This document shows, one piece after another, positions 3,590-49,472 of a stretch of 64,000 nt of DNA (its first letter is position 1; every line of letters starts with the position of its first letter). This DNA comes from a virus: positions 32,001 to 96,000 of IMG/VR virus record IMGVR_UViG_3300005683_000016; one strand, written 5' to 3'. The notes under the pieces were generated by a model that saw only the letters and a program-made list of their open reading frames with translations, was not told the DNA's origin and searched no databases. A program made the translations under genes and the position numbers.

Positions 3590-4510
3590 TTAAGTGATGA
3601 AATAACTTATTCCAGAGAAGTATACATTTCCGTCAAGATTCACTCCTCCTGCTATATCATCAGCAGCGACAGAAACTATACCACCTGTAGTAATCAGTAT
3701 GCTTGCCCATCCATTTGAATCTGCATCTGTGCATCTTACATAAAAAGTCATATTATATGAAGGTCTGTATTCTACTGGAAGAAGAAAAGTTTGAGTAGAA
3801 TTTTCCCCATTCTTTACCGCACCAGAGATTTTTACTTCATTTCCCTTACGATGTATCCGTATAGGATAGCCCAAAACATCTTCCCAATCATTTTCAAGAT
3901 CTACACTTTCTGTATAGGTGACAAGTTCTCCTGTAAAGTTGTTGCTTACCACAAGCCACTGATAAGAAACGTCATTTATTTGTACGAGTTTAAGTCTAAG
4001 TACTTTGTGAACAGGATCGGCAAGATCATAAAAAGAATTGGTCGTAAGAAGAGGATTCCAACTGTACTGAATCTGTACGTTGAACTTGTAATTCAAAAAA
4101 GCAATCTGATTGTCTGTAACACTACTTATGTCCTTTATCAGGATTTCTTTGTTTATAAAGGCAGAAGTGGTGGGAAGGACTAAAGTATTTTCATAAGTAC
4201 CAGATGCTTCATCATCGGTAAACGTAAGCAGTAGTATTTTGGTAACATCCTCTTCTACAATAGTATAAGAATCTCCATCATCTGTTTCTCCATCAGAATG
4301 AAACTTTATGATCTTGGATGCCATTTCATTGTTACATTCTATCAATTGCAACAAGTCTGTAAGGGTTCTTTTATCACCATCGTCCACACTGGAATTTTCA
4401 AAACAAAGGGGGTCTTTATCATAAATGACACAGTCTGCGTTTACCGTAGAAGCACATCCGGTAGAGCAAGGAGTAATGGTTTTGGTTTGAGAGCAATTTG
4501 TACAAGTCAT
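3590..4510 (-). CDS. Structural/fibre-like protein, paralogue 1 (Cys-rich N-terminus)
   Basis: N-terminal CxxC...NADCV.Y; C-terminal beta domain 'V.ISG...LPVEYRPS...FSGISY' common in tail fibre/baseplate proteins. Confidence 0.55.
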   Translation of the reverse strand: MTCTNCSQTKTITPCSTGCASTVNADCVIYDKDPLCFENSSVDDGDKRTLTDLLQLIECNNEMASKIIKFHSDGETDDGDSYTIVEEDVTKILLLTFTDDEASGTYENTLVLPTTSAFINKEILIKDISSVTDNQIAFLNYKFNVQIQYSWNPLLTTNSFYDLADPVHKVLRLKLVQINDVSYQWLVVSNNFTGELVTYTESVDLENDWEDVLGYPIRIHRKGNEVKISGAVKNGENSTQTFLLPVEYRPSYNMTFYVRCTDADSNGWASILITTGGIVSVAADDIAGGVNLDGNVYFSGISYFIT

Positions 4511-4546
4511 TTTATTTGTCTTAAGAGTTGAGATTTAATTAATTGA

Positions 4547-5395
4547 CTAATCAACATACCAACTTACACCGAACAAAGAAAGATTTTCTCCACTCGTAAG
4601 ATGGGTTCCTCCCGGAAAACTAACTGCAATAAAGGTATTGATCGTAAGAAGTGCTCGATAAGGAGAAGCATCTACCGCTACCAAAAAATAACCGGAAGAA
4701 GAAGGTCTGTCTTTGGCATCAAGATTCAAAAGAGTTGTAGGGACATTTCCTCCAGTGACCATACCCTGCAATTGTCTTAGTTTACCGAGTCTGATAAGTT
4801 TGAGTTCTTCTACTATTTCCCAATTGCCCTCAAGATCTTCATCTGTGAACACTTGAACAGAGGGAGTTCCTATAGAAGGACTTGTTACCACCCAAGAGTA
4901 GTTGATACCGTCTTTTTTCAGATAAGTCAAGTACAAGACTTTGTGAGGCTCCCATGCAAGTTTATCAAACTCGTTTGTTTCCTCTTCTTGATCAAATACA
5001 ATGTTTTCAGAAAACTCCCAATATACTGTACCAGAAGGATCATAATCTACCGAAATATCTTTTAGGATAAGAGTTTTATCTATAAATTCCGCAGACTCTG
5101 GTAATGTAATGGTATAAGTAACATCGTTTGCACTATTGATGTCTCCGTTTAAAAGAAGAATCTTACAAGCATCCTCTGTCAGAATTTCGTAATCTCCTGT
5201 TACAATTTTAGCACTCCTTTCGCACTTATCCTCTCCTATCAGTTCAAGTATCGAAGAAAGAGAACGAGAAGATCCGTTGTTTACATTTGTCTCAAAAGGA
5301 AGTTTGTCTCCCTTATACTCTACACAATCTGCGTTTACAGTATAAGGACAGTCACAGTTTTCCAGACTTACTTTTTTGCATGCTGTACAAGCCAT
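4547..5395 (-). CDS. Structural/fibre-like protein, paralogue 2
   Basis: Likely start MACTACKK at 5395. Collinear similarity to 3590-4510 (NADCV.Y, KILLL, KDIS, HKVL, RPS, G.S). Confidence 0.55.
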   Translation of the reverse strand: MACTACKKVSLENCDCPYTVNADCVEYKGDKLPFETNVNNGSSRSLSSILELIGEDKCERSAKIVTGDYEILTEDACKILLLNGDINSANDVTYTITLPESAEFIDKTLILKDISVDYDPSGTVYWEFSENIVFDQEEETNEFDKLAWEPHKVLYLTYLKKDGINYSWVVTSPSIGTPSVQVFTDEDLEGNWEIVEELKLIRLGKLRQLQGMVTGGNVPTTLLNLDAKDRPSSSGYFLVAVDASPYRALLTINTFIAVSFPGGTHLTSGENLSLFGVSWYVD

Positions 5396-5459
5396 TTTAA
5401 ATAGTTTTTTTAAAAAACACATAAATATAAGTTATAGATATATGAATAAAAGATAACAA

Positions 5460-5924
5460 TTATTCAACAAAGAAAGATATACCATCAAGGTATAATTTGG
5501 ATGATTCTCCAGTTGGAGCAGTACCTGTAAAATAAAGTCTCAGATTTCGATCTACTTCGATCTTTAAAAATACGTTATAGGTTGTTCCTGTAAACTCGTG
5601 TGCCAAGGGAACAATTCTTCTTTCGGTTATTTTGACGGGTAAAGTTGCAATAACTGATTGAACATCTCCACCGGAAAGTTCTCCAGAAAGGTGATAAAGT
5701 TTACCTTTTTTGAGAAGTTTGGGCTGTCGAACAATAGTCCATCCAGTTCCTACAACAATATCCTGAACAGAATCTAAAGTTTCTTCCTGACAGCATAGTT
5801 TTTCAGAAATTTCCTTAAGCCAATCATTAAGAGTGTTACCTTCAAATTCAAAACATTTTGGTTTACGAAGACCTACTTCTATTACTTGGTTAGAAGATAT
5901 GGGATTTGTGTTACAGTTGTCCAT
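5460..5924 (-). CDS. Short fibre-like protein, paralogue 3
   Basis: Shares the C-terminal domain (HLSGELSGG...LP...LYLDGISF) with the two neighbouring genes. Confidence 0.5.
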   Translation of the reverse strand: MDNCNTNPISSNQVIEVGLRKPKCFEFEGNTLNDWLKEISEKLCCQEETLDSVQDIVVGTGWTIVRQPKLLKKGKLYHLSGELSGGDVQSVIATLPVKITERRIVPLAHEFTGTTYNVFLKIEVDRNLRLYFTGTAPTGESSKLYLDGISFFVE

Positions 5925-5970
5925 GTTATTTAAGTTAATTAGTTGGTTAATAATTTAATAATTTAATAAT

Positions 5971-6909
5971 TTAATAATAAGAAGATACATTAGTATAAAT
6001 ACTACTTCTATTTGAAGATTGATTGGTCGGATAAACAATCAGTTCTTGAATTGATTCTGAGGAGTCAGCACTATCCGACCCAACCCATGCTGTAAACGTT
6101 CCCGATCTTGAAAAAGAAGCAAGACCTGAAGCAGACTCACTCTGAACTGAACCATCAATACGAATTTCAGCAGTTGACGCGTTTTGTACGATAGTTTCGC
6201 AAATATGCTGAGAATTGTCTGATACTGTTGTGTTCTTGTACATATATGACGAAACACCTTCAAACAAGGCATAAGAATTTGAAAAATCAGATCCAAAAAG
6301 AAGAAAATCGAGAGCAGTGTTATCACAGAGCGTATTTATAAAAGTGCTGGCAGACACTACCGAAATCCCGTATAATTGTGAAGAACCAGATACATCTGCA
6401 AAATCAACTGTTTCTGAAAGCGGAGTATCGTCCAATGAAAAAAGAGCAGGACGACTATTTTTTTCAAGAACAGAACCATTGTCAACTATTTGCCACTTAC
6501 TCATTGCGACATCAAACTCATATCCATTACCAGACTGGTCATACCATTTTATTACATATCCGTCTGTCCCGGAACAAAAAGTGGTCAACGCTGATTCATC
6601 GAGATCACCATCTGCTTCAAATCCTATGTCTTGGGTAGTGTTGTCTGAAGATCTTTGAACCCTGAGACAATTTCCCATATAAGAAGTAGAAAGTTTTCTA
6701 ACCGATAAAGCAAGTCCTGCTCCGGGATAATCATCAAGTATCCCTGTAAAGGTAGCCAGAGTAACACCGTTAACTTTTTTAATGTTTGAGTCAGAAACAG
6801 TAGATACTTTCTTAATGTCGGTATCTGTTACTCCATCTACTTTTTTGATGTCTTGAGAAGATAGAGGAAAAGAAATTAACAACAACAACAAAAACAACAA
6901 TCTTTTCAT
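5971..6909 (-). CDS. Signal-peptide-bearing ConA/LamG-like lectin (arabinofuranosidase-B catalytic-like) protein
   Basis: MKRLLFLLLLLISFPLSS|Q signal peptide, three IKKVxxV repeats, and 'LSVRKLSTSY.G..LRVQRSSDNT.QDIGF...WYDQSGNG' typical of phage AbfB-like domains. Confidence 0.7.
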   Translation of the reverse strand: MKRLLFLLLLLISFPLSSQDIKKVDGVTDTDIKKVSTVSDSNIKKVNGVTLATFTGILDDYPGAGLALSVRKLSTSYMGNCLRVQRSSDNTTQDIGFEADGDLDESALTTFCSGTDGYVIKWYDQSGNGYEFDVAMSKWQIVDNGSVLEKNSRPALFSLDDTPLSETVDFADVSGSSQLYGISVVSASTFINTLCDNTALDFLLFGSDFSNSYALFEGVSSYMYKNTTVSDNSQHICETIVQNASTAEIRIDGSVQSESASGLASFSRSGTFTAWVGSDSADSSESIQELIVYPTNQSSNRSSIYTNVSSYY

Positions 6910-6922
6910 AGTGTGTTTATAA

Positions 6923-7618
6923 TTATTTTACTTCAACAATAGTTTGAGAAGGATTTAAAAATTCTTTTACCTGAATGTCATTATTGTTCTTTTTACTGAA
7001 CAAAGTATGAAAAAGAACATGGCATTCTTTACAAAAAGTAATTCCGTTATTTATATCTGTCCTTAATTCAACATGAGAAGCATAATTAAATATATGATGA
7101 GCATTCAATTCTCCACCTCTTTGTTTACATTTTTGACATGTATAATTATCTCTTTTAAATACTTCCTTTCTCCAAACTGTATCTGCTGTATATCTTTTTT
7201 GTTTTACAGGTGTTTTATAATTACCATCGACCCAATTAGGATGTTCCGAACCATAATATGTAGGTGGTTTATTACCGTTTAATAATGATTTTTGTCTTAT
7301 TTTGTTTTTATGGTCTTCTGATAAACTACCTGTTTTTAATCCTTTGTTCCAAGATTTACGTCCTTTATTAAAACTATTACAAAGCATTCTCGTACTTACT
7401 GCTTTGTTGTAACATTCTCTACAGCAGTATTTTCTTGGTCGTTTGTGCCATCTTCCTTTAGGTGTAAACTCTTTATTACATATTAAACAGTTTTGAACTA
7501 TTTTGTTTTTCTCTTTTAGAGACTTAGATTTTTCGTATCTAAGTTTTGCTTTCTCTCTAAGTTTTTCCCTGTTTAATATATAATACTCTTTTTGTTTGTT
7601 TTTATCTTTATAAGGCAT
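6923..7618 (-). CDS. HNH homing endonuclease with NUMOD3-like motif
   Basis: 'WRKEVFKRDNYTCQKC...LNAHHI...NGITFCKECH..FH' HNH core plus 'SEDHKNKI' NUMOD3. Confidence 0.9.
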   Translation of the reverse strand: MPYKDKNKQKEYYILNREKLREKAKLRYEKSKSLKEKNKIVQNCLICNKEFTPKGRWHKRPRKYCCRECYNKAVSTRMLCNSFNKGRKSWNKGLKTGSLSEDHKNKIRQKSLLNGNKPPTYYGSEHPNWVDGNYKTPVKQKRYTADTVWRKEVFKRDNYTCQKCKQRGGELNAHHIFNYASHVELRTDINNGITFCKECHVLFHTLFSKKNNNDIQVKEFLNPSQTIVEVK

Positions 7619-7624
7619 AATAAA

Positions 7625-10600
7625 TTATTTTATTTCTACAATGGTCTTGTCTGGATCAACTAATATTCTATCAGGATGTACTGCAATACCTACAATCACC
7701 ACACAATCATCAGTACCACTTGGAGCAGTTTGAGTAAGAGTATTTCCTGTTGTTCCCGTAGTAGAAAGATAGACATAACCTCCTACTGTCCAGTTCCAAG
7801 AGTCATTTCTTGCAATACCCTTAAGTAAATAGGTTGCTGAGTTACCAGTAGTAACGGTAGCGGTACACATAGCAACTACTTTTGCTGTTGCTATGCCATC
7901 TGCATCAGCAAGGGTTGCATCACCATCAGAACCTATATATACTACGTCACCAAATGCTTGGTTTTCATTAGCAGTAAAAGTTATTTTTTCACCACTTACT
8001 GTTGTGTTAGAAGAAGGTGCAGCAGTAATTACCATTGAGTTTAAGGTGGTTGTCGTAAAGGACAAACCGTCTCCCAAAGTTACACCAGAAAAATCACCAT
8101 CACCATCGGCACCAACCAGTATCGTCGGGTTATCTGTTGTAAGATCTGAAACCCTTAACTCACCTGTAATGTCTACTGTTCTTGCTGGAGCAGAGGTAGA
8201 ACCAAAACGAGTTGCACCAGCAAAGTTGTTTGTAGTGGAAGAACCAGACTGATAAATACCTTTTGCAGATGAATTTGAATAAGCGATTTCTAATCCTCTA
8301 AAATCTGCAATTGTCGTAAGGGTCGGATTTAAGTAGATTCCTCTGGTAATACCACTTGCTCCACCTGTCTGATTAATCGTAGAAGTAAGATTTAGAGATG
8401 CATATGCTTGAGTACCTGAAGTCGGATTAAAAGTATCATCTAACAGAATAGTATGATCTCCTAAAGTAGTTACACTATAAGTAGAGGGAGAATAGACATA
8501 AATTTCTTCTGCCGAATCATCAAATCCCCACAAAGGATTATTATCGTTCCAAGCAAAAAAGAAAGTTCCGTTGGAAGATGCTTTTGCTACCGTAGCATCT
8601 GGAATAACATCCGAACCTCCATAAATACCATTTCCTGCACCTGCTGTAGCAGTAAGAGTTGTTCCTGTAAGACTTAATCCACTTCCTACTGTAATACTGG
8701 ACAACACACCGTTAGCATCTGCTCCTACTATACTGGCAGGATTAGTAGTAGACAAATCTCGTATTCTTACTTCTCCTCCAACATCAAGAGTTCTACTTGG
8801 ACTTGATGTGGAAGACCCTATTCCTAACTTACCTCTTAGATAAGATCTTACAGTATCACCTTCTGGTTGCCACAAAAACGTGTGAGTAGAAGGTTTATAG
8901 TTGATTCCTCTAAAATCATTGGGAGCAGCAGTAAGAGTAGGATCTATGAACAAACCGTTCATGGGTTGATTTGCACCACTGGTTTGATTTATAGTAGTTC
9001 CCAACCTGAGCAAAGAAGGGTATCCTGTGAGAGTACTTGCCAAAGTAGGTGAGTAAGTACCTTCAATGTTTAAAAAGGTGCTTCCTACAAACGTATCTGT
9101 TTTAGCAGCAGTTGGTACTATAGTTACCCCTTGAATAAAAGAATTACCACCCGGAGGTTCTAATTTTATGGTACCGCCCGATGTTTTCAAGGTCATGTTT
9201 CCAGATCCACTGATATAAGACGCATCGTCTTGATAAAGAGAAAATCCAGTAGAGGAAGAAGATCTTTCAATAAATATACCATCAGCAGTGGTGGATTGTT
9301 TTAAATAAAGTCTATAACTTGAAGAGGGACTTGCTCCAATTCCAACTTGAGCACCATTAAAAGTAAAGTCTGCATCACTAGTAACAGTTTGAGTTCCGTT
9401 AAAATAAGCAACCCTACCGGATACTCCACTACCTGTAATGTCGTCACTTGCATTAGTATCTCCCGTGTTTGTTAAAGTGATAGTGGATCCAGATTCGTTA
9501 ATAGAAAGTCCTGTAGAAGCCTCAATTGTAACAGCAGTAGAACCACTGGTATTACTTACAATAGTAGAGGTGGTTCCGCTTCCAGCACCTACTGTTAAAC
9601 TTCCTTCATTGGTTACACTTCCATCCACTTCAGTTGCTGTCACAGTAACGGCACCTGCGGTTTGAGAAATTACAGCAATCCCCGCTCCTGTAATAGACCA
9701 CGAACCACCACCATTAGATAAAGTATTGGTATAAGTAGTAGTACCTCCGTGAGAATATGTTTGTAGTTCATTTGAAGTACTACCGTCTACCTCGGTAGTA
9801 GTGATACGAAGTACATTGGACGATGGTTCACTAAGTACACTTATTCCTGCTGCTTCAATGGTGATGTCGTTAGAAGAACCAGAAATGTCAAATACATAAG
9901 GATTGCTTCCAGTAAGAGACAAATCTTGTATTTCGTTGGTAGTTGAACCGTCAACTTCAGTTGCACCAATAGTTATGGTTGATCCACTTTCACTTACAGT
10001 GACTATTCCTGATCCTTCTATAGTTACTGCTGTGGAACCAGATGTGTTACTCACAATTGTAGAACTATTTCCACCTCCTGTTCCAACAGTTAAACTACCT
10101 TCATTACTAACACTTGCGTCAGTAGCAGTAAAGACAAGAGTATTTGCCGGAGATTCCGACAAAGTTATACCGCTTCCAGAAATTGTAACGTCTGTCCCTG
10201 TTGACGATTCAATTGTATAAGTAGGCCCTGCACCACCAATTGTAAGATCGGTTGCTCCACCAGTTGCGGTTAAAGTGGTTCCAGACAATGACAATCCTGT
10301 TCCTACTGTAATACCGGCAAAATCACCATCGCCGTCTGCACCTACTAAAACAGTTGGGTTGTCTGTTACCAAGTCGCTGACCCTCAGTTCTCCAGTAACA
10401 TCTAATGTGCGTGCAGGAGTAGAGGTAGATCCTATTCTTGTATTACCTGCAAAGTTGTTTGTAGTACTTGTTCCAGACTGATAAATACCTTTTGCTGTGG
10501 CACTTGAATAAGGTATGTCTATTCCTCTATAGTCTGCTACAGCAGTAAGAGTTGGATTGATATAAATAGATCTGATTATACCGTTTGCTCCACCTGTCTG

Positions 10601-40729: not shown

Positions 40730-41941
40730 TTACAAAACGTGTTTAACCGTTTTAAACTTAAGACCTTTGTAATGTTTTTTACCTTCGTAAAGAACCTTTT
40801 CGATTGCTTTTCTTTTGAACTCTGGATGTTTAGATATAAAATCATTGATGGAAGGATATTCAGTTTCGGTATCTCCATTTATTACAATTAGTTTTACTTT
40901 AGGCGCATTTGATGTATTTACCCTAAACTTAACTGACTCTAATTTATCTTCATAAGCAAAAGGATATTGAAGAGTGGGAAGTCCTTTACATAAAATAGTC
41001 CGCAAAGAACTTTCGTTTAAATCGTGCTCTATAAGTAAATGCTTAACCGAAGCATATCTTTTTAAAATATTTTTATCTTGATCTATGTGAAGAACGTTGG
41101 TGGTTTTTTTTCTTATTGTATATAGTTCATTAGGATCATATTCTTTTTCTGGAACAAAGATTAATCCTTTAGTAGATCGCTGTCCTTCTTTACCATATAG
41201 AATTCTTTCTAAAGCATTTACAGATACTTGGGGATAAGTGTCTCTAATCTCTTTAGGAGAAGTAAAGGTTTTAATTATTTCTGAAGAATCAGGTTTGATC
41301 TGGAAAATGTTTCCTAATGAAGTAAAAAGTTGAACTTCAAATTCTTCTTTAGTGACTATTCTATAAGGGTTGAGAAAAAGATATACGTCTTTCACTAAAC
41401 CTGTTTCTTTAGATGTTAAGATTATTTTGAGTTTATTGTTACTCTTTCTATCTAAGAAAATAGAATGAGTGTCTTTGAATTTTAAAGTACGTTCTATAAT
41501 ATTGGTTTTAATAGAATCTTCTATGCCATCGAGTGTTTTTAACTTTGAATAATGTTCAAAGTTTTTCTCAGACATTCTCTTCTGCTTACGTTCTCTTTCT
41601 TGTATATGCCATTCTGCATTAAAAGTACCCTGGATAGCCGATTGAAAATTATACCCCCCACCCACTTTTAAGGACTCATAATAATCCATCCAGTAATCTT
41701 CTCTTTCGTTTAAGAGAGATTTATTATTAGGGTCAATAAGTTCTAATATCCTAAACACAAATGCTTGTTCTCCATACTTATTCCAAGAAGATTGTAAATA
41801 AGTATTACCGTGTATTCCTTTTCTTAGAGAAGATCTATGTTGTGACCACCTCGAAGTAATATTTACACTTTGACCAATGTAACGTTTGTTGTTTTCTAAA
41901 TTAAGAATTTCGTAGATACCTGATTTTGCTTTGTGTGTCAT
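40730..41941 (-). CDS. GIY-YIG homing endonuclease
   Basis: Likely start MTHKAKSGIYEI...RYIGQS...RW.QH...LQ.SWNKYG. Confidence 0.88.
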   Translation of the reverse strand: MTHKAKSGIYEILNLENNKRYIGQSVNITSRWSQHRSSLRKGIHGNTYLQSSWNKYGEQAFVFRILELIDPNNKSLLNEREDYWMDYYESLKVGGGYNFQSAIQGTFNAEWHIQERERKQKRMSEKNFEHYSKLKTLDGIEDSIKTNIIERTLKFKDTHSIFLDRKSNNKLKIILTSKETGLVKDVYLFLNPYRIVTKEEFEVQLFTSLGNIFQIKPDSSEIIKTFTSPKEIRDTYPQVSVNALERILYGKEGQRSTKGLIFVPEKEYDPNELYTIRKKTTNVLHIDQDKNILKRYASVKHLLIEHDLNESSLRTILCKGLPTLQYPFAYEDKLESVKFRVNTSNAPKVKLIVINGDTETEYPSINDFISKHPEFKRKAIEKVLYEGKKHYKGLKFKTVKHVL

Positions 41942-42132
41942 GTTATATGTTTTTGATTGCGGGGGTAAAGGTACAAAAAAATAAGAAGGGTGTATGGATT
42001 TTAACATTTTGTTATGCTTGTAAGATAGCATAAGTTTAGCCTCATCCCCCTCACCCATCCTCAATTTGATCTCCTACGCCCCCTATGGGTTATTTGGAGA
42101 TCATATTTTTTCACATGAAAATTTCCAGCAAC

Positions 42133-42535: not shown

Positions 42536-42560
42536 ATTTACCTATATTATATATAGGTGT

Positions 42561-42613
42561 AACTGTCCAGAGATATGTATCTCTGCTGATGAGTCCTAAA
42601 GGACGAAACAGTT
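42561..42613 (+). ncRNA. Type III hammerhead ribozyme
   Basis: AACTGT-C | CAGAGAT-ATGT-ATCTCTG | CTGATGA | GTCC-TAAA-GGAC | GAA-ACAGTT: complete core with a GUC cleavage triplet (cut after 42567). Confidence 0.93.
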
Positions 42614-42741
42614 TTATTTACTATTGGACATCATTAAGGTGCTCCGATAGTATTTAGACCAGAAGGATGGTTTATTAATAATCATTTAATGGTCTTAGTT
42701 ACTTAATTAAGTAAATAGTACAATTAATATTGGTATCAAGC

Positions 42742-44966: not shown

Positions 44967-45599
44967 ATGAAAAATAAAAAAATCCTGTCTATTGATGCCG
45001 AAACCGATGGACTTTGGGGCAATCCGTTTGTAGTTGCCGCTATCGTATATGAGTGGCAACCAGAAAAATTCATCCCAGGTATGGATCGTGGTGTAGATGG
45101 GTACAGACCTGAACACATCCTTCAAGGATATTGGAAAGAAACCAACAAAATTCTGTTAAAACTACCTGATACAGTGGTTTCTAACCAATGGGTAATCGAG
45201 AACGTATTACCTACATTGAGCAATATCCGCCAACACTCTGGCGGTGCTGGTAGTGAATATGTGAACCATACTCACGAATCTTATGAAGACATGCTGCGTG
45301 ATTTTGCAGCATTTTATCTTGCTCACAAACAAAATGCAGATTGCATCTGCCACATGGGCTACATTGTAGAGGCCCATTTGTTTCGGGAAATGCACCACCT
45401 TGGTCACATAGGAGAATGGGATGCACCATACCCGTTGCTTGATGTGTCAGGCAATCTCCAGCAAGTTGGAGAAGATCCTACAAGTGTAGATAATTATGCT
45501 AAAAAACATCGGTTACCAATCACGGATTATGGTTCAACCCATAATCCCCTGTACGACTGCGAAGTTGCCGCCAAAGTGTATATGCACTTAACACGGTAA
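44967..45599 (+). CDS. DEDDh 3'-5' exonuclease
   Basis: SIDAETDGL (ExoI) ... HNPLYDC (ExoIII). Confidence 0.8.
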   Translation: MKNKKILSIDAETDGLWGNPFVVAAIVYEWQPEKFIPGMDRGVDGYRPEHILQGYWKETNKILLKLPDTVVSNQWVIENVLPTLSNIRQHSGGAGSEYVNHTHESYEDMLRDFAAFYLAHKQNADCICHMGYIVEAHLFREMHHLGHIGEWDAPYPLLDVSGNLQQVGEDPTSVDNYAKKHRLPITDYGSTHNPLYDCEVAAKVYMHLTR

Positions 45600-45605
45600 A
45601 CAATC

Positions 45606-45773
45606 AAAATCAAAAGTGAAGTGAAATATATCCATAATGTAATAGACGGTAAGCAGTCCGTTGAGCATATTTGGTTAATCGTGAATGTACTATGTACAAT
45701 GCGAGTATTAAGACCTTTAACGGGTTGCAAGGAGATAATATAATTATCAAATTGTAGGACGGCTTTTGATTTT
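45606..45773 (+). ncRNA. Unidentified multibranched structured RNA
   Basis: Closing stem AAAATCAAAAGT/GCTTTTGATTTT encloses TCCATAAT/ATTGTAGGA and four hairpins. Confidence 0.5.
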
Positions 45774-45897
45774 TTTTAATAAGATTACGGTGAGAATCCG
45801 TCTCTCAGCAAAGTAGTAATACTTGAACTAATAGAGAGTGTAATAAGATGTTCAGTAGCGAAGAAATTAATTTTTCTTAGCGAGAATGGAGAAATCC

Positions 45898-46041
45898 TCT
45901 GAAGTTATTACAGATAACCATGTGGGGCTTATGTCTTGAAATTCTTAAAAAGTGGCGCACTTTTTATTAATAAGTTATAATTCTGTATTAGTACAGCGTA
46001 ACTTAGATTATCAAGCATTAGTGCAGACTTAAAAATCATGG
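45898..46041 (+). ncRNA. Hatchet ribozyme with expanded P4
   Basis: P1 TCTG/CAGA, then CCATG-TGGGGCTTATG-T-CTTGA...TCAAG-CATTAGTGCAGAC-TTAAAAAT-CATGG. This matches the hatchet core as I recall it (CAUGUGGGGCUUAU...AUUAGUGCAGAC...CAUG), with compensatory changes. Confidence 0.85.
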
Positions 46042-46163
46042 AGTGGTACGACCTCAACTCGTATAATCTTTGTTGCAGATATTGATGAAAACATGAAAAG
46101 ATGTTCTGAGAGTCTTTTAAAAAGGTATCAAAAAGCAAAAGAAATTTTATTAAAAATATAAAA

Positions 46164-46594
46164 CATTCACTCCGTAAAGTCTCAGTCTTTAACAGGACTC
46201 ATCACAATTCCTTTAACGTAACATAAGTTGGTGGAACAACAGGCTTAGGTCTGTCTCACAAGTATGGTGGAAGTTTGGTTGGTAAAGACAGGAGATAATG
46301 TAATCCGAAAGGATTGGCAGCAGATGGACATTGTGTTCTTAGAACATAAATAGGTCAATACAAGATGAACAGATTAAATGCTGTTATGCTTGGACGTTTC
46401 CTTATCTGCCTTTTCAAGGTAACACTTTCAAACCAGTAATGGTGAGATAATGAAGAGTATACATGTGGCAAAAGTGTTCCAGTAAGAGCATACCCACCTG
46501 ACAGGGTAATTCCAGTTTCCAAATTGTATAAGGAAACAAACGGGTTAGGATATAATTGTGCAGACGCCCTAATAGTTAGGCTAAGGGTGTAACA
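46164..46594 (+). ncRNA. Unidentified large structured RNA, copy A
   Basis: Shares conserved blocks and covarying stems with 47241-47677. Confidence 0.75.
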
Positions 46595-46599
46595 ACTCC

Positions 46600-47230
46600 C
46601 AATCATTGGGTTAAATGGTAGTTATCAGTTACTTTAACTGATTTAGTTTACCTGTTTGTATAAATTTAACAGGAGTTCTTGTACATACAAGTGTTGTTAC
46701 TTTTTCCAGCAGTCAGAAAAAAGCGTGTAATCTACGAGATAAGATTAACCTACTGTACTTAGGTTTGAGGGTAGTTCCATGTACAACATTGAACCGAAAG
46801 GTATCATGTAAGCCCTTAAGTGGGATAAATTGAGTTAAATTGTGTTAGGTTGAAAATATACCTGTAAGAAATAATACATTTTTCGCATTTGTGAGATTTG
46901 TTAAGGTTCTTCCACAATAATATCCTACACTCAACGATGGCAGCCGGGTTGGAACCCACAGTAGATAAATAACTATACTCTTTTAGGGAGTGAAGTCAGT
47001 GTAGTTTTACTGAAAAAGTTAGTATTTATTAGACTGTTTAATAGGCGTTTTGTATATTGTAAAGTTGAATTTGTATCATAGAGAATCTGTGGGTGGATTT
47101 GCCTAATGTTAGGTGAGAGTAAGTTCGATCCTTACCGTTGATATAAATTTAACAGATATACAATCCTATACTATATAAGTCTGATCAACTTATGTAGTAA
47201 TTGTGCGACCCACATTATTGTGGGTGACAT
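46600..47230 (+). ncRNA. Unidentified ~630-nt ornate RNA (ROOL/GOLLD size class)
   Basis: No ORF; many hairpins and long-range stems; ends in the same 3' module as copies A and B. Confidence 0.6.
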
Positions 47231-47240
47231 TTTTTAAAAA

Positions 47241-47677
47241 CATCCACTCTGTAAAGTCTTGTAATTCGCGGAAGGTTTAACCAAATATTCTCTCTTTGGG
47301 GATAAAAAAGGTGAGAATCCTTTTTCTGTGTATAGACAGGAGATGATGTAAACCAATAATATGGTTTGGCAGCAGATGGACATTGTTATTTCTTAAATGA
47401 ACTAATAAATAGGTTACTGTTCAACTTATATAAGTTGAAAGAGATTTCCTTATCTGCCTCTTCACGTTAATAGCGTTCAAGATACACTATGACCGTTGTG
47501 AAATTCAACAGGAACTACTGATTCTATACCAATCAGAGTAGTGTACATCCAGTAATGGTGAGATAATGAAGAGTATACTAAGGGTAGTCCGTAATTCAGA
47601 AATGAATTAGAGTGGGAAAATAGACTTATAAAAATCCTACCTTAGTAATTGTGCGGCATCCCAAGTGGATGCAACAT
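47241..47677 (+). ncRNA. Unidentified large structured RNA, copy B
   Basis: Conserved blocks and covarying stems shared with copy A. Confidence 0.75.
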
Positions 47678-47689
47678 TTATTAACAAAA

Positions 47690-47724
47690 TTTTAACTTTT
47701 AACTTTTAACTTTTAACTTTTAAA
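47690..47724. repeat. Tandem heptamer (TTTTAAC)x4 plus TTTTAAA
   Basis: Read directly; lies immediately upstream of the ATG at 47737. Confidence 0.9.
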
Positions 47725-47736
47725 ATTGTAACGGAC

Positions 47737-48114
47737 ATGCAATTTACATTAGATCACAAAGTAGGAACAAACTATGTAACTGTCACTTTAAGTGGAAAAG
47801 TATCTCCACTTATATGGTGTGAGTTTTTCACAAAACTCCAATATCTTGGAGGAAAACAAGCAGTAGAAGGACAGTCGGATATTTGGCTGTTACCTACTTT
47901 TGTTACATCACAAGTCATTGAAGAAATCATCCATAACACATGTTTCGTGTGTGGTGGATTGATGAAAGATTCTACTGCATTTTTGAATGACTGTGTATCA
48001 TTCGATGATTTTGGTAATGATGCTGGACAACGAGGTACAACACAATCACGTGTTGGAGAAGCAAAACAAGTCAAAGTTCGCAAGTGCTCTTCTTGCGGAC
48101 ACTCACACACTTAA
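47737..48114 (+). CDS. Hypothetical protein with Zn ribbon
   Basis: CFVCGG ... KCSSCGHS. Confidence 0.7.
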   Translation: MQFTLDHKVGTNYVTVTLSGKVSPLIWCEFFTKLQYLGGKQAVEGQSDIWLLPTFVTSQVIEEIIHNTCFVCGGLMKDSTAFLNDCVSFDDFGNDAGQRGTTQSRVGEAKQVKVRKCSSCGHSHT

Positions 48115-49386: not shown

Positions 49387-49472
49387 GCTCCTGTGGCGAA
49401 ATTGGCAGCACGCTGCGGTCTTAAACACCGTTGGAGAAATCCGTAAGGGTTCAAGTCCCTTCAGGAGCACCA
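49387..49472 (+). tRNA. tRNA-Leu (anticodon TAA)
   Basis: GCTCCTG/CAGGAGC acceptor, GCGGT-CTTAAAC-ACCGT anticodon arm, long variable arm, TTCAAGT T-loop, encoded ACCA. Confidence 0.93.

Follow-up and report, generated by a model that had tools for sequence, protein, structure and literature searches.

Large structured RNAs are known from several phages: GOLLD and ROOL are ornate RNAs of several hundred nucleotides (nt) that lie near transfer RNA (tRNA) genes, and arrays rich in ribozymes (hammerhead, twister, hatchet, pistol and RAGATH) were reportedly described in phages by Perreault in 2011 and by Weinberg in 2015 and 2017. Polycistronic RNA is elsewhere processed in a punctuated manner, at its tRNAs or by RNase E, which releases small RNAs. 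Here we analyze a stretch of 64,000 nt (hereafter the window), bases 32001-96000 of the 142-kb IMG/VR virus record IMGVR_UViG_3300005683_000016, whose large terminase is closest to crAss-like phage terminases (24-27% identity) and in which three tandem large RNAs are each closed by the same 3′ module, a pair of hairpins flanking an invariant UUGUGC that may define and protect the 3′ ends of these RNAs.

The RNAs lie in a 2.1-kb stretch that holds no credible open reading frame (ORF), between an ORF ending at 45599 and another starting at 47737. RNA A (approximately 46160-46594) and RNA B (approximately 47237-47676) have five conserved blocks in common, and the middle RNA between them (46595-47229) differs from both, yet has the same kind of end. 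An earlier reading of the letters of the window alone (the sequence-only reading) had proposed that, apart from this end, the middle RNA does not resemble its neighbors; it is indeed different overall, but direct reading of the sequence shows that all three share a 5′ start ACUCC and the motifs GGCAGC and ACAGNAGAUAA.

Like the ribozyme-rich phage arrays (PMC6154101), this locus and its relatives combine on a single strand small ORFs, tRNAs, several ribozymes and structured RNAs of no known class, but no motif listed for those arrays, including the Rfam RAGATH families, matches the module or the large RNAs. Rfam 15 covariance models, which include those for twister, twister-sister, pistol, hammerhead, hairpin, hepatitis delta virus (HDV), RAGATH, Drum, GOLLD and ROOL, gave only chance-level matches over the modules and the three RNAs at E values up to 5-10. 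The resemblance to GOLLD and ROOL is that of large structured non-coding phage RNAs beside tRNAs, without an Rfam match to the RNAs described here. Ribozyme-rich phage RNA arrays as such are already known, while the module and the RNAs closed by it are not in Rfam 15, and literature searches on non-coding RNAs of crAss-like phages returned nothing on these RNAs. To our knowledge, one 3′ module common to different large RNA classes has not been described in ribozyme-rich phage arrays, and we know of none that GOLLD or ROOL has in common with other RNA classes.

Structure of the shared 3′ module

The string TAATTGTGCR occurs at exactly three sites in the window, all on the plus strand (46553, 47198 and 47646), compared with a mean of 0.24 in shuffled windows, where three sites were reached in 0 of 100 shuffles; the pattern ATTGTGCR-N14-34-RACA finds the same three sites against 0.52 expected. 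The whole 142-kb genome holds one further pattern match only, which is chance-like, and a covariance model of the core recovers only these three copies in the window and one or two per related contig. These sites and their hairpins (ACGCCCT/AGGGTGT at 46564-46590, ACCCACA/TGTGGGT at 47208-47225 and GCATCC/GGATGC at 47656-47672, each then followed by R-ACA) agree with the three copies that the sequence-only reading had described, as does the variable stem found ahead of each.

For a comparison across relatives, we parsed the stems of 22 distinct cores by script; a model-fitted alignment mis-registers the stems as the linker varies in length. The consensus of the core is (N)A-UUGUGC-R(N)-(6-8 bp stem)-R-AYA, with UUGUGC as its sole invariant part (identical in 22 of 22 modules), and the TAA seen ahead of it in the window varies (TA, AA, GA, CA, AG). 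Sixteen different stems make up the terminal hairpin in the 22 cores, with 100% pairing at the outer six positions and 2-5 pair types per position, G-U pairs among them; when 3′ strands were swapped between sequences, pairing fell to 59% +/- 4%, with a maximum of 73% in 2000 trials. Terminal loops are GNRA, UUAU, CAAGU or the 13-nt AAUAGUUAGGCUA, the last identical in nine A-type modules with differing stems. The tail, described beforehand as RACA, holds to that form in the window but widens to R-AYA across relatives, with ACA in 17 and AUA in 5 of the 22 cores. By our tally, 17 of 25 modules have UU right after AYA, and about half have at least four U in six positions. Pairing is possible between AYA and the UGU of the junction, as both forms of Y (C in 17, U in 5) pair with G, and RNAfold favors the neighboring register GUG:CAU over UGU:AYA; because these bases never vary, the register of the pairing is not decided by comparison. 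In either case, as modeled, three junction bases pairing with the tail can give the second hairpin a conserved base with a small internal loop.

In the window, module A consists of the junction A-UUGUGC-AG (46555-46563), with the invariant UUGUGC, and a terminal hairpin ACGCCCU-AAUAGUUAGGCUA-AGGGUGU with its AACA tail (46564-46594), assigned by stem and loop comparison and by folding. The middle module (47200-47229; local fold z = -4.5) reads A-UUGUGC-G, hairpin ACCCACA-UUAU-UGUGGGU and tail GACA, then UUUUUU, and module B (47648-47676; core parsing and folding) reads A-UUGUGC-G, hairpin GCAUCC-CAAGU-GGAUGC and tail AACA, then UUUAUUAAC. All of these are on the plus strand, as are the elements that attach them to the RNA bodies.

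The first hairpin takes two forms. In the middle module it spans 47169-47199, with exactly 12 bp and a 7-nt loop, and an alignment of 12 relatives shows exactly 12 bp throughout with loops of 7-9 nt, 99.3% of cells paired versus 58% in shuffles, and two-sided changes at 12 of 12 pairs, where controls slid by 1-3 columns give 32-48%. Since both the first and the terminal hairpin covary strongly with many G-U pairs, the module is an RNA structure on the plus strand. Module A instead opens with a branched variable stem (46460-46554) whose closing helix, 46460-46464/46550-46554, has one C-A mismatch, and whose homologue in the related contig L151 is closed by UUUAU/AUAAA; module B opens with a variable stem (47576-47647) closed by UACUAAGG/CCUUAGUA, as found by stem parsing and folding. 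Among relatives, this A/B-type element can be as small as C-GAAA-G (L147) or a 6-bp hairpin (L141) or as large as a branched insert of more than 130 nt, and a size that ranges down to C-GAAA-G makes the element dispensable.

Each form is tied to its RNA body by a helix of its own. In module A, UGAAGAG (46451-46457) is the 3′ strand of an anchoring helix with CUUUUCA (46410-46416), and in copy B the helix joins 47567-47573 with 47458-47464; the pair is CUCUUCA/UGAAGAG in most sequences, CUUUUCA/UGAAAAG in L148 (a two-sided change) and CUUUUCA/UGAAGAG, with a U-G pair, in the window. In the middle RNA, UUGUAUAU (47050-47057) pairs with AUAUACAA (47156-47163) approximately 100 nt downstream, and the inner pairs of this long-range helix covary (UUGUAUUCCG/CGGAAUACAA in L143, UUGUAUACC/GGUAUACAA in L147, UUGUAUAUC/GAUAUACAA in L012 and L146). 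These helices bear on the TATAC that had been noticed ahead of each module: the letters are present, but they do not form one common element: in the A/B type they are made up of the UA junction and the opening bases of the variable stem, and in the middle type they are part of AUAUACAA.

Other pairings of the junction were considered and rejected. A local fold pairs UACAA with UUGUG in the middle type but is displaced by the covarying long-range helix (UUGUAU.../...AUACAA), and a GUACAA:UUGUGC pseudoknot is possible in six middle-type variants only. Pairing of GUAUA with UGUGC in the A type fits most sequences, is broken in L150, L151 and L160, and competes with the closing pairs of the stem. 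A kink-turn (K-turn) or sarcin-ricin motif would need G-A pairs or a GAA strand, which the junction does not have. Separately, we observed that 46546-46560, the end of the variable stem of RNA A plus its junction (UAGGAUAUAAUUGUG), is 93% complementary to CACAAUAAUAUCCUA at 46913-46927 in the middle RNA, where it overlaps the AUAUCCUAYACUCAA block that middle-type RNAs conserve; the match may reflect contact between the RNAs or may be due to chance.

Position at the ends of RNA units in related contigs

A blastn search of the 2.1-kb region against 50,697 annotated phage records gave no match. Pattern scans of IMG/VR and metagenome contigs yielded about a dozen related contigs (L012, L016, L141, L143, L145-L148, L150, L151, L155, L160, L162-L164), with the 17-nt patterns in IMG/VR producing mostly chance matches and related ones only in L012, L016 and L015/L018. 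A pattern built on the module flanks alone hit 93 loci in IMG/VR, and the hairpin was present in the same clade only. In the related contigs, every A/B-type and every middle-type unit has the module at its 3′ end, so that conservation in relatives, one of the two observations on which the sequence-only reading had made its refutation depend, is found, and at the edges of the RNA units.

What follows the module changes from contig to contig. At least four different elements come after near-identical A-type terminal hairpins: a middle-type RNA (window and L143), whose ACUCCC stands directly behind AACA (in the window with zero spacer and no U tract, the middle RNA starting at 46595), two other RNA types (one in L146 and L150, the other in L145, L147 and L151) and a tRNA (L016). 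Behind modules with the B-type hairpin (loop CAAGU, B-like stems), L012, L148 and L155 have a tRNA-like element with ACCA at its end, and window copy B and L141 have the next gene. Middle-type modules are mostly followed, 20-30 nt on, by small ORFs of 54-104 residues unrelated to each other, and the A-type RNA begins at the stop codon of the inserted ORF; the window and L145 have no such ORF, and there the RNAs directly adjoin each other. Because the element downstream of AYA is variable, the module marks a unit boundary.

Several features of these insertions were noted in passing. Small ORFs occupy the same middle-to-A junction in L012, L016, L141, L143, L147, L148 and L155; in L148 and L155, the stop codon of the inserted ORF falls within ACUCCGUAAAG, where the A-type RNA has its first helix, and AACAUU stands on both sides of several of the inserts. 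The Rfam DUF805b RNA motif (gathering score 35.6) matches 9-14 nt upstream of small ORFs in L143 (3010-3046, 46.9 bits) and L146 (4667-4703 on the minus strand, 35.5 bits). A tRNA- or transfer-messenger RNA (tmRNA)-like element with a T arm and an ACCA end lies approximately 15 nt past an A-type module in L012 (minus strand, approximately 5440-5545), L148 (3230-3351) and L155 (1934-2055), with a weak match to the Rfam tmRNA model (15 bits). The arrays of the relatives also hold a hatchet, a twister-P1-like match and many tRNAs; the twister-P1-like match, at 1583-1654 of L143 in the same array of RNAs and ORFs, scores 46 bits, below the gathering score of 67.

Possible roles of the module

We give somewhat less than an even chance to the reading in which the module is a 3′-end-defining and protecting element of a processed polycistronic transcript and the 3′-terminal domain common to a family of non-coding phage RNAs built from modules. 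From sequence comparison we infer that these early-region RNAs, with the small ORFs, tRNAs and ribozymes, would be made as one long plus-strand transcript and cut just past each module, after which the terminal hairpin would shield the released RNA from 3′-to-5′ degradation. The candidate cutter is a host RNase E/G-type enzyme acting in the AYA↓UU tail; alternatively, the cut may come from maturation of the next element, by RNase P at a tRNA or by a hatchet at its own 5′ end. The invariance of UUGUGC would probably reflect a tertiary or protein contact. Surroundings rich in ribozymes and tRNAs fit the processing of a long transcript, and the 17 of 25 tails reading A-Y-A-U-U fit the RN↓WUU preference that Chao et al. 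reportedly found in 2017 for enterobacterial RNase E; the Saprospiraceae metagenome-assembled genome (MAG) that carries a spacer matching these RNAs (described below) encodes an RNase E/G protein (PF10150, 331 bits). The likeness to punctuated processing extends to units only 0-30 nt apart and to the tRNAs or tRNA-like elements after some modules, although the cut is a prediction here. Several points weigh against this reading. The invariance of UUGUGC is beyond what simple 3′ protection explains, and the conserved 13-nt loop of the A type suggests an additional role (a tertiary, kissing or protein contact). Eight of the 25 tails lack UU, the middle RNA starts directly after AACA, so that A and the middle RNA could stay one molecule, and the RNase E motif is short and taken from enterobacteria rather than from Saprospiraceae.

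The invariant nucleotides lie in the junction and not in the stems, the loop AAUAGUUAGGCUA is identical over nine different stems, the middle-type first hairpin keeps exactly 12 bp in 12 of 12 relatives, resembling a length rule, and its loop carries GUACAA, complementary to UUGUGC, in six middle-type variants; these would also suit a module that is mainly an architectural, protein-binding or assembly handle whose 3′ position is incidental, with the UUGUGC/AYA junction and the conserved loops docking elsewhere on the same RNA, on a second RNA of the array, or on a protein of phage or host. We regard such a handle as doubtful. It leaves unexplained the constant position at which the downstream neighbor changes; the GUACAA loop is absent from other variants (loops AAAGGCCAA, CUGAUCA); and no conserved candidate binding protein adjoins the module, the neighboring ORFs being mutually unrelated and the flanking proteins of the window having no RNA-related family. 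It seems unlikely, too, that the terminal hairpin and its U-rich tail are an intrinsic terminator, with each RNA end a separate primary transcript end. The module does have a stable 3′ hairpin, often a GNRA loop and partly a U-rich tract, like intrinsic terminators and 3′ stabilizing hairpins; a simple consensus scan for terminators flags two of the three copies in the window, the middle module and B (stems of 7 and 6 bp, then GACAUUUUUU and AACAUUUAUU), and many middle-type tails read ACAUUUNUU. Yet module A and other A-type modules lack the U tract that directly follows the G+C-rich hairpin of an intrinsic terminator (AACAACUCC, AAUACGAAC, AAUAUUGAAG), the U run begins 4 nt past the strong stem, and a terminator does not need the invariant 6-nt UUGUGC. 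The ORFs 20-30 nt downstream in relatives leave no room for a promoter and would require frequent read-through, and the module, found only in the RNA array and at no other gene end of the phage, is not a general terminator of it. Partial termination at some copies is possible. Among the functions first suggested for a shared signal dividing the RNAs, a conserved element that closes each unit where the downstream neighbor changes is borne out, whereas termination alone fits poorly.

A hatchet ribozyme lies upstream of RNA A (described below), and approximately 90% of hatchets carry P0, a hairpin of free sequence a few nucleotides before the cleavage site (PMC4604424), a layout like that of the terminal hairpin and AYA at the end of a unit. 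With a variable element downstream, however, no downstream ribozyme can be responsible in general, in contrast to the hatchet P0. The module itself is not a hatchet, as RF02678 matches only the upstream site and none of the modules at E values up to 10. What the two have in common is U-N-GUGC(A): the hatchet strand U-N-GUGCA resembles UUGUGCR, and the AUUGUGCAGAC that some modules carry is almost the same as the AUUUGUGCAGAC strand in the L146 hatchet. Hatchets have conserved nucleotides in the P1-P2 linker and in an asymmetric bulge between P2 and P3 (PMC4604424), but the module lacks P1, the CAA linker, the AGACGUUAAAAUCA strand and the enclosing P2; its preceding UGAAGAG pairs upstream with CUYUUCA and not downstream, a topology unlike that of hatchets, in which P2 encloses P3/P4 and the cut falls at the 5′ base of P1, and the bases after GUGC vary, AGAC not being conserved there. 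Nor is the terminal hairpin an optional hatchet hairpin in the 3′ strand, since the extra hairpin of hatchets is P0, 5′ of the cleavage site (PMC4604424). That the module, or the RNA closed by it, is a new self-cleaving ribozyme with a core including UUGUGC-R and R-AYA would agree with invariant junction nucleotides between covarying helices, which are typical of small ribozymes, and with arrays that hold a hatchet, a hammerhead and a twister-like match, neighborhoods of a kind that has yielded new ribozyme classes (PMC6154101); with no known class matching at E values up to 10, we consider this very unlikely. Only a little less improbable is a wider possibility, in which the UUGUGC-R/R-AYA junction with its two flanking helices is the core of an RNA-processing device not described before: a new class of self-cleaving ribozyme, or the dedicated site of an unknown nuclease. 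Saprospiraceae phages would use it to divide one long early transcript into small mRNAs and several large non-coding RNAs, and a host Cas13b system would target these RNAs.

Further candidates were rejected. The -7 promoter box of Bacteroidota sigma-A is TAnnTTTG, with a conserved TA at its start; the box-like TAATTGTG occurs in the window only, relatives have CAATTGTG, GATTGTG, AAATTGTG and ACATTGTG, and the TA is not conserved. A CRISPR-repeat hairpin of the Cas6 type does not agree with stems that differ in every copy and units of 230-630 nt, and no cas gene was present among the neighbors tested. An integron attC-like site was dismissed for want of a GTTRRRY core and because the ORFs have no copy of their own, and a TnpB/IscB guide RNA because no such ORF is adjacent.

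Host, surroundings and significance

A pattern scan of species-representative genomes gave a match in CAYZVM010000009.1 (L166), a contig of an uncultured Saprospiraceae MAG, where a CRISPR array (36-nt repeats, 30-nt spacers) lies directly upstream of cas13b in a type VI-B locus (3740-4765 and 4928-7999; Cas13b model NF038190, 573 bits against a cut-off of 150). The spacer at 3842-3871 matches 46432-46460 of the window at 29 of 30 positions and copy B at 28 of 30, and most relatives also match. Its target is the most conserved block of the A/B-type RNAs (46432-46461, plus strand; a CCA-GUAA-UGG hairpin, UGAGAUAA, UGAAGAG and UA), which recurs on the same strand as an exact 30-nt repeat at 47548-47577. 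If the array is read in the same direction as cas13b, its spacer is antisense to the plus strand of the phage, so the CRISPR RNA would pair with the A/B-type RNA. This orientation along cas13b follows the convention and repeat features of Smargon et al. (bioRxiv 10.1101/092577): in that direction, the repeat has self-complementary ends and, in its loop, the U run described there, and by hand count it is identical to the PspCas13b repeat at 21 of 36 positions versus 17 of 36 when reversed. The protospacer flanks (5′ A, 3′ CAU) fit the rules of BzCas13b (bioRxiv 10.1101/092577). Against it, the degenerate repeats lie far from cas13b, which would normally place the leader next to cas13b and reverse the orientation. 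On these sequence features, the orientation that makes the spacer antisense to the RNA is likely, and a spacer of an RNA-targeting Cas13b means that the RNA is probably expressed. The match assigns the phage a putative Saprospiraceae host and suggests that an RNA-guided RNase of this host targets a non-coding RNA.

Around the array, a hatchet self-cleaving ribozyme (Rfam RF02678, 67 bits against a gathering score of 51, E 7e-13) lies on the plus strand at 45894-46041, 120 nt upstream of RNA A, and in the same place in L151, L146, L143 and L141. Because a hatchet cuts at its own 5′ end, it should create the 3′ end of the RNA upstream, 45600-45893, a structured and ORF-free stretch that carries no module; it contains AGGAGAUAAUAUAAUU, a block also seen in A-type RNAs such as the L016 copy. 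A type III hammerhead (42560-42614; Rfam 49.7 bits, gathering score 48.5) sits just past a divergent switch between minus-strand and plus-strand genes, a GIY-YIG endonuclease gene occupies 40730-42064, and Rfam places a tRNA-Leu(UAA) at 49387. None of the units has an obvious promoter, as no Bacteroidota-type -33/-7 pair was seen by eye (this pair was not scanned for) and a sigma-70 scan stayed at chance level. Four tandem TTTTAAC heptads followed by AAAATTGTAACGGACATG occupy 47687-47739, and in at least 7 relatives TTGYAACGGAYATG stands ahead of the first gene beyond the RNA array, the exact motif occurring only once in the window. A look-alike of a tRNA T arm (GUAAG-UUCGAUC-CUUAC, 47119-47135) lies inside the middle RNA, with others, GGUUCGAAUCC and GGUUCGAGUCC, in A/B-type inserts of relatives (L016 minus strand, L141); ARAGORN calls none of those in the large RNAs a tRNA.

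Phage regions packed with ribozymes and orphan RNAs have been known for more than 10 years without a clear purpose, and a precise 3′ module shared at their swap points gives a handle on how such arrays are cut up, with the 59-nt module of L141 (11374-11432, minus strand) and the A-type RNA of approximately 235 nt in L147 (111-362, minus strand) as minimal forms for study. The Cas13b spacer adds a candidate host among the Saprospiraceae and a hint that the RNAs are made during infection and visible to that host. Even if it proves to be a protective hairpin only, the module would be a useful marker for finding this RNA family, and should it turn out to have catalytic activity or to be the dedicated site of a nuclease, it would represent a new signal for RNA processing.

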